In this document: positions 59,834 through 64,000 of the stretch, one piece after another
How the letters are laid out: each line of letters starts with the position of its first letter
How positions within the stretch are numbered: the first letter of the stretch is position 1
DNA from: Torpedo marmorata
Lineage: Eukaryota
Assembly (NCBI GenBank): GCA_977017645.1
Contig: OZ360223.1
Location: 84,940,001-85,004,000 of the forward strand
DNA length: 64,000 nucleotides
Direction: 5' to 3'
Translations under genes and position numbers: made by a program
The notes under the pieces: generated by a model
The model's database searches: none
The model's input: the letters and a program-made list of their open reading frames with translations, nothing else
What the model was told of the DNA's origin: nothing

Positions 59834-60430
59834 AACCATATAACCATATAAAAATTACAGCACGGAAACAGGCCATTAGGCCCTTCTAGTCCGCACCGAA
59901 CCAAACATTCCTATCTAGTCCCACCTACCTGCACGCTGCCCATAACCCTCCACTTCCTTCTCATCCATATACTTGTCCAACTTTTTCTTAAATAATAAAA
60001 TTGACTCTGCTGCCACTAAATCTCCCGGAAGCTCATTCCACACCGCTACCACTCTCTGAGTAAAGAAGTTCCCCCTCATGTTACCTCTAAACCTCTGCCC
60101 CTTAACTCTTAACTCATGTCCTCTTGTTTCAATCTCTCCTACTCTTAACGGAAATAGTCTATCCACATCCACTCTGTCTATCCCTTTCATAATCTTAAAA
60201 CCTCTATCAAATCCCCTCTCAACCTTCTACGCTCCAAAGAATAAAGACCTAATCTGCTCAATCTCTCCTTGTACTCTAGATGCTTAAACCCAGGTAACAT
60301 TCTGGTAAATCTTCTCTGCACTCTCTCCACTCTGTTGATATCCTTCCTATAATTTGGCGACCAGAACTGCACACAGAACTCTAAATTAGGCCGCACCAAC
60401 GCCTTATATAATCTCAACATCACTTCAATC
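59834..60430 (-). mobile_element. CR1 LINE 3' part, abutting the ERV LTR
   Basis: [33 protein letters not shown]; AACCATAT repeat tail. Confidence 0.93.
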
Positions 60431-60898
60431 TGTGGAGGAAAATCTACTAGTCACAGAATTTACCCAGGCAGAGACGTTCAGGGTAGAGCTTCAAGAGACT
60501 TTAATCATGACAATGTCACGGAGATCTTGCCCAGTCCGCACTGAGTCAATGCTCTGCTTTCTGCTTAATCTTGTCTGCTTATATGCAGTGCAGTAAACAG
60601 CTTTTTACAATGAAGCAGTCATGGGCTACACAAGGTTTCAATAATTCCATCGATTAAACATTTAGAACTTCATTCTATCTTCTAAACACACATAGTTCTG
60701 TCTCTTGATGATAACACCCAGCTTGCAGTAAAGTTGATAAGGAAAAAAGGGAGTTACTGTTTCATGTCCTGTTACATCCTTCAAGACCTTGAAAGCTTTC
60801 CGGTCCCTTTGAGTTCATCCAAGACCTTGAAGGCTTTCCGGCCCCTATGAGTATGCTTATTAACCCATTGAGGTCGGAGTAACATTTTTCCTTCTACA
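60431..60898 (-). repeat. ERV 3' LTR (468 bp)
   Basis: Minus strand TGTAGAAGGAAAA...TTTTCCTCCACA; CATATAAG TATA-like box at ~60577-60584; ATTAAA at 60500-60505. Confidence 0.82.
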
Positions 60899-60911
60899 AA
60901 TCCCTCCTTGT
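60899..60911 (-). promoter_or_regulatory. ERV polypurine tract
   Basis: ACAAGGAGGGATT between the env stop and the LTR. Confidence 0.75.
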
Positions 60912-60915
60912 GGAT

Positions 60916-63050
60916 CTACAGATCCACATCATGCCCTTCTGATGGGAAGGGAGGATCATATCCTTGCGGGAATGGTCGCATCTGCAAACACGCTTCTTCA
61001 TTATAAGGTTCCTGCATGCGACTACAATTTTTTATTCTGTTCCTATTAATGCGCACATGTTCCTTGAGCTGAGCTACAAGTGTCATTGCAGTATTTATCA
61101 AGTGCTTTACCCTAAGCCATAATACGCAAGTCACAACTAAAAGCATCAGAATAAAGATCCCCACTACCACTATAGGATGTATTGCTAATTTAAGGACGGC
61201 CGAGGCTTTTGGGGACCACCCCTTGAAAATGTCCCACCAATGGTGCACCGTGAGTGAGGTCACCTGATCCGATATTCGAATCAGTTGACCCTCCTTGTAG
61301 CTCATTTCCACTGTCATTTGTCGGAGGTTACGTCCTCTCTGAGCCAAGGCATTGGTTATCTCCTGTCCATTCTTAATAAGAGTGTGTAATTTGTTAAGAC
61401 TGATGACTGGGGGCAAGAGCTCAATATGATGAACACTCATATTTTTTCATGTGCTTCCACTGCCCCAAATGGTGGGTCCTATTGGTATGGGGGTCCAGAA
61501 TCATCCTTACTCCTTTATAACAATTATTTATGGGGGGCTTAAAAAGAACGCCATCCAAGTATACAGCCCACACACTAGATATGCAGACATGGCCCTCACC
61601 TATCTCCGAAATCACCATCTCATTGGAGAATTTCATCTCCCACTTACAAGTTCCTTCTGAGTGTCTCATGGTGCAAGGTTCAAAAATGGCCGTTCGGTAA
61701 GGGCACACTCTTCCAAAAGGCCACACAACACAGCCCTTTGGTGAGTGGGTTTGGTTTTTTTTATCCACCCATTCACCTCGAAACACAGGGTACCAAAACT
61801 TTCTTCCGAACAGATGGGGCAACACCCTAAACTTACACCACGTGCTAGCCCTCGTTTTGTCAGTCACCTCCATCGTGATATTACAACCCATACTATTGCA
61901 CCTGGTAAATCTTCGGCGGGGTCTAATGGTTAGATTAGCGGATTTCTCTGTCTTATTGAACCCCAACATGTGTTCCCACGTTGGGGCATGGAAGGTCAAT
62001 ACCTTCCTTTCTAATTCGGCTCGTAGCGACTGGAAAACCAACTCCTTCATCACACATAAAGTGAAATTATCCTCTTGTTCCTTTTGCATAGCTAATGCTA
62101 TTTCCTTTTCTACTTCCTCATTATGTTGCAAGGTCATGGCATCCGTGAAGAGATCCTGTACCTGTGCTTTCTGAAGTCCCTCATCCCATGCATCTCGTAT
62201 CCGCATTCCTTCTCCTACCAATCCCCCCACAGTTTGTATTTTGTTCTGCAATACTTCTACATCCATTGAGTTCAACACTCCCATCCCTGTTCCTACACCT
62301 CCTAATATTGTTCCCAACACGTCTCGTCTCCGTCTACTCTTCACCTTCTCTTTTACCAGCTGCATCTCTATCTCTGTATTACTGCACCCCTTCCTTTCTC
62401 GAGTCCCATACTTAATCTGTATTGTTAGGTTTAGCACGTTCGGGGATTGCACCACCTGCTCACAAGTTGTGAGTATCCGTCTCAGATGTCCTAATTCCGT
62501 TTGCTCGGTCTCATTTTCCTTTATCATCCACCATATCCACCCGGAGTAGGGAGTTTTTCTTCCACTTATCGGGGTACTATTGGAGCACCCAACCCAGGTA
62601 GTTTCATTAATGGTAAAATTATATGAACTTTCAGCTCTTGTGTTCACATTTTCGTCTACCCATCCCCTCCTCAAACTATAAGTTGTTAACAGGGTCATAT
62701 TACTTTCGACCTTGCACCATATTGGCGTAATATTAAACGTCAAATCCAACTGTATACTTCCCCCACCTCGGCTAGTCGAGTAAAATACAAATTGACCTCT
62801 CCCTGTTCTTTTCCTACATTCCATCGGGCATCTAACCACTTCGATCCCTACCACACATCGTTGGCCAGCCGGGCATGTAAGATTTTCCTTGGGTCTGGTT
62901 ACTGTTGGTTGTCCTCCATTCTTTATAACTTCCTTTCTCAAAAGGGACAGGCCCTTTTGGTTCCACCACTTCCGCCGCTGAAGTCTGATGGGCGGGTGCC
63001 AAGAACAGACCCACCAAACTCAGAATCACAAACTCATTCATGTCAAGCAT
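60916..63050 (-). CDS. env: ERV envelope glycoprotein (~710 aa once two 1-nt frameshifts at ~62942 and ~61442 are corrected)
   Basis: Signal peptide MNEFVILSLVGLFLAPAHQTSA; RRRR furin site at 62324-62335; fusion peptide DVLGTILGGVGTGMGVLN; many NxS/T sites; HHWWDIF; TM IVVVGIFILMLLVVTCVLWL. Confidence 0.88.
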
Positions 63051-63079
63051 TTGACAAATTCAATCAGAAGGCTACAAAG

Positions 63080-64000
63080 TCAATCAAAATGGAAAATCTT
63101 GCATCGGGCGGCGTGTACCCAGTCCGGTCTTCCGTCTAGCTTTAATGCCGTCCGAGTTGTCAGCAACACTTGGTAGGGTCCTTTCCACCTAGGAGAGAGA
63201 TTATCCTTTATTAAAGCCTTCACTAATACCTGATCCCCCGGCTGGAAAGGATGCACTTCCCCACTGCTCATGGGAATCTGGTTTTGTTTCACCTGGTTAT
63301 GTATCCTGGCCGCAGCCTCACTCATAGCCTGAGCAAACCTTAAGGTATTATCATCATTCCAAATCAAAGCCACCTTTTCAGGGGCTAATGGTGGACTGAT
63401 TCCCGTAGGCATAGGTCGTCCCATGAGGACCTCGTGGGGGGTTAACCCTGTGCTGCGATTTCTTTGATTTCGCAACATATACATAACAACAGGTAAGGCC
63501 TCCGGCCACCTTAATCCCGTCTCATTGCATGTTTTGCTTAATGCTGTTTTAATTTCTCCATTCACTCTTTCCACTATTCCTGACGACTGGGGCTGATAGG
63601 GCAAATGCAACTTCCACTGGAATCCCATTGCCTGCGCAAGGGCCCCTACTATCTTGCCAGTGAAATGTGTTCCCCTGTCGCTATTAAATCCCATCGGTAT
63701 TCCATATCTAGGTATCAGCTCTTTCAATAATATTTTTACCACTGTCCTAGCATCGTCCTTTTTCGTCGGGTATGCCTCTACCCACCTGGTAAACATGTCC
63801 ACTACTACTAACAAATACTTGTACCCTGTGGCTGGGGTCATATGTACAAAATCAATTTGTAAATTTTCAAACGGGGTGCTCGGCATGGGTAAGTGATCAT
63901 ATTTTGCAGGTGTTTTTCCTCTATTATTTTTCTGGCATATTAAACAGGTTCTTACTACTTTATCAATAACAACAGTGATGCCTGGCGCATACCACTGCGT
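63080..64000 (-). CDS. pol: ERV pol C-terminus: integrase, open to the window edge
   Basis: CLIC zinc finger, LQIDF, WVEAYP, SDRGTHF, PQSSGIVERVN, PGDQVLVK..PRWKGPYQVLLTT..WVHAARCK (class I, epsilon/gamma-like). Confidence 0.95.
   Translation of the reverse strand, partial: TQWYAPGITVVIDKVVRTCLICQKNNRGKTPAKYDHLPMPSTPFENLQIDFVHMTPATGYKYLLVVVDMFTRWVEAYPTKKDDARTVVKILLKELIPRYGIPMGFNSDRGTHFTGKIVGALAQAMGFQWKLHLPYQPQSSGIVERVNGEIKTALSKTCNETGLRWPEALPVVMYMLRNQRNRSTGLTPHEVLMGRPMPTGISPPLAPEKVALIWNDDNTLRFAQAMSEAAARIHNQVKQNQIPMSSGEVHPFQPGDQVLVKALIKDNLSPRWKGPYQVLLTTRTALKLDGRPDWVHAARCKIFHFD

Follow-up and report, generated by a model that had tools for sequence, protein, structure and literature searches.

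The provirus and its envelope gene

The window analyzed here is a stretch of 64,000 nucleotides of the genome of Torpedo marmorata (GenBank assembly GCA_977017645.1, contig OZ360223.1, positions 84,940,001 to 85,004,000 of the forward strand), which ends within an endogenous retrovirus (ERV). A class I provirus occupies positions 60431-64000 with its 3' part, which lies on the minus strand and comprises the end of pol, an envelope gene (env) and the 3' long terminal repeat (LTR) (Table 1). The element has the layout LTR-gag-pol-env-LTR and a length of 9.3 kb. The copy in the window is dead, as it carries two frameshifts in env (near 62885 and within 61409-61446) and two large insertions of ~4.4 and ~4.8 kb interrupting pol/gag. 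Its env is spread over three frames, which were mapped on one uninterrupted natural copy of the gene (P0003), and this copy was used unaltered in searches and for folding.

In P0003 the furin-type site RRRR (residues 236-239) is followed by DVLGTILGGVGTGMG. Ten cysteines are found from the cleavage site to the transmembrane helix (residues 329-507), including C437-x8-C446-x9-C456-x8-C465, of which C437, C456 and C465 are kept in at least 90% of 19 aligned family rows. HHWWDIFKGWSP stands ahead of the transmembrane helix near residues 612-640, and the putative signal peptide region is only moderately hydrophobic. A preliminary description of this locus, made from the letters of the window, had listed the RRRR site, the Gly-rich peptide, the cluster of about ten cysteines, two heptad regions and the motif preceding the transmembrane helix, and all of these were found again. 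It had also reported that there is no immunosuppressive domain (ISD) and no CX6CC motif, which was confirmed on the uninterrupted copy; P0003 contains no CXXC motif either. Sequence and predicted helices together give the layout of class Ib fusion proteins, with a basic cleavage site directly before the fusion peptide, two heptad regions and a C-terminal transmembrane anchor.

The proposal of the preliminary description that this layout resembles F proteins was borne out by modeling: in a structure search the AlphaFold model of Env matches paramyxo/pneumovirus F and foamy-virus Env, at an identity of 6-12%, and the predicted beta core contains strands from both subunits, as in class Ib fusion proteins. 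The structural matches include the WEHV1 Env (WEHV, walleye epidermal hyperplasia virus; E 9e-8 for the full model, 3e-5 for the core), and no gamma-type transmembrane subunit structure is among the listed fold matches. The predicted identity of the Env is that of an F-type (class Ib) fusion protein, and it is predicted to work like one. Stop readthrough would yield Pol, and a spliced RNA would serve for Env. Cleavage at RRRR by furin would uncover the Gly-rich peptide. The N-subunit would remain attached and contribute strands to the beta core in the manner of F2, and a six-helix bundle would form from the two refolding heptads. The N-terminal ~150 residues may bind a receptor.

Table 1. Features of the provirus and its flank, in window coordinates (5' LTR and insertions: window-equivalent positions beyond the window end).
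Feature	Position	Strand	Basis or remark
Flanking long interspersed nuclear element (LINE) fragment, insertion target of the provirus, non-viral	59915..60430	-	
3' LTR, 468 bp, TG...CA ends	60431..60898	-	Comparison with 5' LTR
Purine run adjoining the 3' LTR, likely polypurine tract	60901..60909	-	Role inferred from position
env gene, with 708 aa in natural copies free of interruption	60916..63041	-	
env piece 3, aa 533-708: second heptad region, HHWW motif, transmembrane helix, cytoplasmic tail	60916..61446	-	
Transmembrane anchor	61114..61176	-	
env piece 2, aa 53-544: N-subunit, cleavage site, fusion peptide, first heptad region, Cys-rich beta core	61409..62884	-	
C-x8-C-x9-C-x8-C cluster	61646..61732	-	
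Gly-rich putative fusion peptide	62270..62323	-	Family-conserved R239, G250, N257
RRRR furin-type site	62324..62335	-	Cleavage inferred
env piece 1, aa 1-52, putative signal peptide included	62886..63041	-	
Integrase, 3' end of pol, running on past the window end	63080..64000	-	Pfam rve and MLVIN_C
First insertion in pol/gag	65353-69798		
Second insertion in pol/gag	72125-76901		
5' LTR, ~14.5 kb past the window end	78475-78945		Read in neighboring assembly

The envelope family and its copies

A phmmer search of 1.84 billion representatives resulted in 107 matches at E<=1e-3, and the 30 members that were looked up come from sharks, bichir, frogs, a caecilian, turtles, birds, echidna, koala, Logan proteins and Bufonid herpesvirus 1. 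Common to the family are the furin site, a peptide of the form LGG-x-G-x-G-x-G-x-x-N, the Cys cluster and an HHWW-like motif. A match to TLV_coat or to any other Pfam env or fusion family was found in 0 of 36 members and an ISD in 0 of 39 long members; a C-x5-7-CC string occurs in four long members, at the transmembrane end in the three shown aligned. The Env of the window element shares 57% identity with its sawshark relative, 39% with that of the horn shark and 24-25% with those of koala and Ovex1, and the shark Envs form one clade (support 99) in a quick env tree of 36 rows. The chicken member (P0022, LOC422926, 873 aa) is the open reading frame (ORF) 3 of Ovex1, which aligns with this Env at 25% identity over residues 234-644 (E 1e-19). 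The passages available from the 2009 description of Ovex1 tie its ORF3 to the env of the class I element GGLTR11 and to TERV env, report that CWLC, ISD and CX6CC are lacking and leave its identity as an envelope uncertain (PMC2717909). By homology the Env is thus placed in a vertebrate-wide Ovex1/GGLTR11 env family, the link to Ovex1 having been tested here and those to GGLTR11 and TERV being taken from these passages.

When the family profile was compared with 12 retroviral Envs, the ectodomain matched only the Env of a genome taken as snakehead retrovirus (94%, 233 columns). The next match was an MLV-like Env (60%), confined to 32 columns of the transmembrane segment, and 30 shuffles gave at most 0.9%. 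These values indicate that the env family is remotely homologous to snakehead retrovirus Env; no sequence homology to the walleye-type Env was found outside the transmembrane segment. Moreover, the family includes a 928-aa hypothetical protein of Bufonid herpesvirus 1 (P0047, AXF48633.1; E 8e-10), in which the furin site, fusion peptide, Cys cluster and pre-transmembrane motif are all present. It is nested among frog proteins in the quick tree (99), suggesting that the herpesvirus captured a retroviral env. The top BFVD match of the Env model is a 928-aa protein, probably the same one. Long frames of the family, several of them multi-copy and annotated as uncharacterized, occur in koala (P0012), echidna (P0016), owl (P0025) and Bombina (P0048) and could represent young ERVs or envelopes that were co-opted. 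Viral contigs, queried with Ovex1 ORF3, and metagenome contigs, queried with a narrow alignment, gave no relative. A full-text search over the literature outside subscription journals, Repbase and supplements yielded no paper that describes the Ovex1/GGLTR11/snakehead env family as F-like, a scope at which its absence from print is not established, and the family is not described in the available passages of PMC8227577, PMC11521997, PMC8672886, PMC8278194 and PMC13524379.

With 1.4 kb of env as the DNA query, 537 candidates were obtained in the host genome (6.2 Gb), and all 40 places that were scored match env at 97-100%. Together with the 107 protein matches, these copies, for which the preliminary description had proposed to search, show that the gene is not a product of chance. 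LTR pairs differ by 0.85-2.1% across ten copies and the ERV family is therefore young; the LTRs of the window copy differ by 10 substitutions in 468 positions. The ratio of non-synonymous to synonymous polymorphism (pN/pS) in env is 0.26 for variants common to at least four copies (50 non-synonymous, 52 synonymous, no stops) and 0.70 for singletons (290 non-synonymous, 113 synonymous, 17 stops), a difference with p 1.8e-5; for pol the corresponding values are 0.11 and 0.70. Thus, env was under purifying selection while the ERV family spread, and the low ratio among shared variants implies that env was needed during this spread. Judging by how ERVs behave in general, this points to reinfection as the likely way in which the family spread. 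Searches of the host genome with homologous queries gave 73 places for koala and 62 for basking shark; the 13 loci fetched all match the ERV family of the window element, and no second lineage was seen among these 13 in a first look that was strict. No RNA dataset was listed with the env. Contigs of three small-share sequencing runs contain related DNA in two other organisms, which is uninformative on expression.

Pol, a probable envelope exchange and alternative explanations

The integrase ORF (63083-64000, minus strand) ends in PRWKGPYQVLLTT...WVHAARCK, matches the Pfam families rve (1.3e-17) and MLVIN_C (1.2e-17) and has the MLV-type C-terminus with the GPY motif. The closest solved relative of Pol is the reverse transcriptase (RT) of xenotropic murine leukemia virus-related virus (XMRV) and murine leukemia virus (MLV) (E 3e-137), followed by foamy virus (4.5e-52) and Ty3 (2e-47), and the class I assignment made at the outset is upheld. 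The RT is 42-44% identical to gammaretroviral RT, ~40% to that of WDSV (walleye dermal sarcoma virus) and WEHV and 32% to that of snakehead retrovirus; the nearest named Pol is that of the sawshark (75% identity), which, like the nearest named Env, points to a cartilaginous fish as the host. gag and pol lie in one frame split by an in-frame TAA at 28 of 28 junctions matched by pattern, a count in which overlapping loci may count one copy twice; in gammaretroviruses the gag-pol stop is TAG. Judged by RT, gag-pol stop layout and integrase the element belongs to class I, and it may be called epsilon-like in a loose sense only.

Pol trees were built from 42 of the 120 listed homologues and 16 IMG/VR retroviral genomes, followed by a careful tree of 23 rows; foamy, loki and GGLTR11 rows are absent from them. 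A 12,708-nt IMG/VR genome with a cyclin ORF and a 1225-aa Env is taken to be WDSV, a 10,688-nt genome is taken as snakehead retrovirus, and the labels of the remaining IMG/VR rows are likewise presumptive. In the careful tree this Pol pairs with that of the sawshark (100/99) in a clade of percomorph, wrasse and toad ERVs (100/98), which stands apart from gammaretroviruses and walleye viruses and excludes the 10,688-nt row, a long branch. A clade of this Pol with the walleye rows was rejected (approximately unbiased (AU) test, p 0.0006). The closest non-shark Pol relatives are scombrid (mackerel, tuna) ERVs with 59% identity; one scombrid gene model ends in an ISD/TLV_coat piece and another in a piece with CXXC that resembles a surface subunit. 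The relatives of env, according to the published passages available, sit on differing backbones, namely snakehead-like (Ovex1 and snakehead virus), class I (GGLTR11) and TERV. The gamma-type Env on the scombrid Pol relatives and the env relatives on other backbones suggest that env was likely exchanged between retroviral backbones, a process described as common among retroviruses in the passages seen of PMC8278194. The preliminary description had proposed an envelope-swapped lineage; the discordance of pol and env supports the swap, whereas a single swapped lineage is too narrow a frame for an env family that is vertebrate-wide. As to whether a pol lineage was already known to carry this env, the presence of the family on class I GGLTR11 (PMC2717909, in the parts available) comes close, although GGLTR11 is not among the rows of the Pol tree. 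The env-family profile gave 0 matches in the 120 Pol gene models. The host genome also contains gamma-type env in 78 places, and in the 20 of these loci that were examined the ERVs have a more distant Pol (~22-41% in RT segments).

As a summary, the locus is probably a defective member of a class I ERV family of recent expansion, whose predicted F-type Env comes from an old retroviral envelope family and was likely exchanged between backbones. Several points weigh against this interpretation. The structure matches have Z below 8, a range that may reflect a common arrangement according to the tool, TM-scores (template modeling) of 0.14-0.39 and, for the atlas, a recognition value of 1591, which is under its reliable range; residues 233-300 of the model have a predicted local distance difference test (pLDDT) value below 50. 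No sequence-level match to any F protein was obtained in Pfam or PDB: Pfam gave no relevant family for the env pieces and one whole natural copy, PDB sequence searches with the single protein and the family profile gave no match at E <0.1, and a word-indexed protein search with env gave none. Although 15 of the 45 copies covering >95% of env are free of stops and frameshifts, these copies were chosen by similarity, 13 of them via protein search, which favors open frames. Finally, support for shark and scombrid Pol as sisters is weak in the careful tree (81/67), the scombrid env link consists of two automatic gene models, and the Env type is known for a minority of the Pol rows, so that a gain of this Env here and a gain of gamma-type Env by the neighbors both fit.

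This last point leads to the strongest alternative, which comes somewhat short of an even chance: the F-type Env would be ancestral in this part of the retroviral tree, of deep common descent with the Envs of the foamy, loki, snakehead and walleye viruses, and gamma-type Env would have been acquired later by the scombrid relatives and by gammaretroviruses. The occurrence of the family in all major vertebrate groups looked up, the single clade of the shark members and the structural match to WEHV1 Env are in line with it, as are the published F-like foamy Env (bioRxiv 2024.02.09.579661, in the parts available) and, as a lead only, the atlas, in which the clusters lying closest to the walleye-type Env are 874-aa chordate ones, followed by F0 (0.87, 0.80). 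Gamma-type Env, however, also occurs in basally placed class I genomes (those of 10,207 nt and 10,305 nt) and in the 78 host places, the clade with the walleye viruses was rejected, and the available passages of PMC9967133 argue for a gamma-type ancestor, from which the epsilonretroviral Env is treated as a late departure. This alternative differs in direction alone and leaves most of the interpretation favored above intact.

It is very unlikely that the Env is a degenerate gamma-type protein without ISD and CX6CC whose likeness to F reflects a generic coiled coil and beta sandwich. The modest Z and TM-scores and the weak profile match to the MLV-like Env would allow it, but neither Pfam nor profile searches gave a gamma-type match outside the transmembrane anchor, and the full-length TLV_coat-type alignment that would have spoken against the preliminary description was not obtained. 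Moreover, the ectodomain after the cleavage site has ~375 aa compared to ~137 in the MLV-like Env, the fold search listed no gamma-type structure, and P0003 has no tblastn match to 20 gamma-type env loci of the host genome. Still less likely is a recent direct capture of an F gene from an RNA virus of the paramyxo-like, lispi-like or fish filo-like kind, which the structural matches to mononegaviral glycoproteins would suggest; the identity to these is 7-16%, sequence matches to F in Pfam and PDB are lacking, and the homologues in vertebrate genomes, from sawshark to koala and Ovex1, are far closer than F proteins, by which this explanation is largely refuted. Least likely of all, the element would be a lokiretrovirus or a foamy-like ERV, both of which have an F-like Env, with foamy Env as a top structural match, but its Pol is far nearer to MLV/XMRV than to foamy or Ty3 RT and nested in class I rows (in trees without loki and foamy sequences), the integrase C-terminus is of MLV type and the Fusion_gly match of loki Env is missing.

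A broader proposal is put forward tentatively and appears possible but rather doubtful in its full extent. A further, unnamed orthoretroviral envelope type would exist, an F-like class Ib Env of snakehead retrovirus, Ovex1/GGLTR11, many vertebrate ERVs (shark, amphibian, reptile, bird, monotreme and marsupial) and probably the walleye viruses, which would move between class I, II and III backbones and would have been captured by a toad herpesvirus. It may be the ancestral retroviral envelope linking foamy/loki Env to paramyxovirus F, with the gamma-type as a later replacement. In the class Ia/Ib scheme, orthoretroviral Env falls under class Ia (bioRxiv 2024.02.09.579661, in the parts available), and a vertebrate-wide F-like family on orthoretroviral backbones would, if true, correct it. 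Ovex1 ORF3 would gain a likely identity, and the origin of retroviral env could be tested by mapping env type on pol trees. Epsilonretroviral Env is left uncharacterized by reviews (PMC3758190, in the passages available) and is likewise set aside in bioRxiv 2021.11.05.467493. As the family escapes Pfam, ERV surveys have probably passed over such envelopes, and the interest lies less in the dead copy of the window than in the overlooked envelope family that it exposed.

Insertion site and comparison with known systems

Seven of nine other copies are 9.3-9.4 kb long, one has 8.9 kb and one 8.4 kb, and 5-bp target duplications flank all nine of the other copies examined. The window provirus shows no such duplication; instead, 316 bp of the flanking LINE, which is presumably CR1-like, are present on both sides with 99% identity (window 60112-60426; contig ~85018940-85019255), for which aberrant integration, recombination or misassembly are possible causes. 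The first of the two insertions contains a 993-aa open frame and matches the flanking LINE at 96%, suggesting that the LINE was active recently. At the 5' LTR junction of ten copies the primer site lies 5 nt from the LTR and fits host tRNA-Ser(AGA) with one extra base. No accessory ORF, cyclin or other, stands between env (stop at 60916) and the LTR (edge at 60898), which are 17 nt apart. In one copy (L017, ~1187-1331) ~140 bp are inserted ahead of the 3' LTR, and their last letters equal its 5' flank. Open frames in antisense orientation, one of 157 aa across env (window 61701-62174, plus strand) and one of ~180 aa across the leader, recur across copies and are probably shadows of recent common descent.

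Compared with known systems, Ovex1 is a single domesticated locus with a snakehead/class III-like gag-pol, whereas the element described here is young, multi-copy and of class I, and the available passages on Ovex1 proposed no F-like fold (PMC2717909). Snakehead retrovirus shares the profile homology from the furin site to the Cys cluster and the absence of ISD and CX6CC; it differs by a 1134-aa Env with a much longer N-subunit, a complex genome and an RT outside the clade of this element. An env frameshift abolishes its spread (PMC12193657, in the passages available). WDSV and WEHV resemble the element in their class I Pol, a non-gamma Env, a post-cleavage ectodomain of ~380 aa and the structural matches. 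They differ in that the ectodomains lack sequence homology (HHalign 2.8%, transmembrane segment only), in the rejected Pol clade and in their cyclin/accessory ORFs. The premise of the preliminary description that epsilonretroviral Envs carry ISD and CX6CC fails here, as the walleye Envs lack both of these gamma hallmarks (PMC3758190 and PMC9967133, in the passages available). The walleye-type Env of the 12,708-nt genome (L075:5974-9648) and BFVD Q9WHI8 appear F-like by layout, Foldseek and atlas features, and an F-like nature of walleye epsilonretrovirus Envs is suggested at the level of a lead.

Foamy Env and paramyxo/pneumovirus F share with this Env the predicted core with strands from both subunits, but belong to different virus groups, and foamy Env differs by its long leader peptide, which is retained, and by an additional cleavage site. 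In the published parts available, an F-like Env was also reported for invertebrate errantiviruses, with vertebrate ERVs deferred to a later report, and the section seen of Viro3D describes class I fusogens in aquatic herpesviruses, expects more in Retroviridae and names neither this env family nor the toad virus protein. The lokiretroviruses come close in the order of signal peptide, furin site, fusion peptide, coiled coil and transmembrane anchor, as an F-like Env on a vertebrate LTR element; their Pol is sister to all retroviruses and their Env matches PF00523 (PMC7947760, in the passages available), whereas here Pol is of class I and Env has no Pfam match. The element thus stands outside the walleye genus Epsilonretrovirus, the snakehead clade and the lokiretroviruses.
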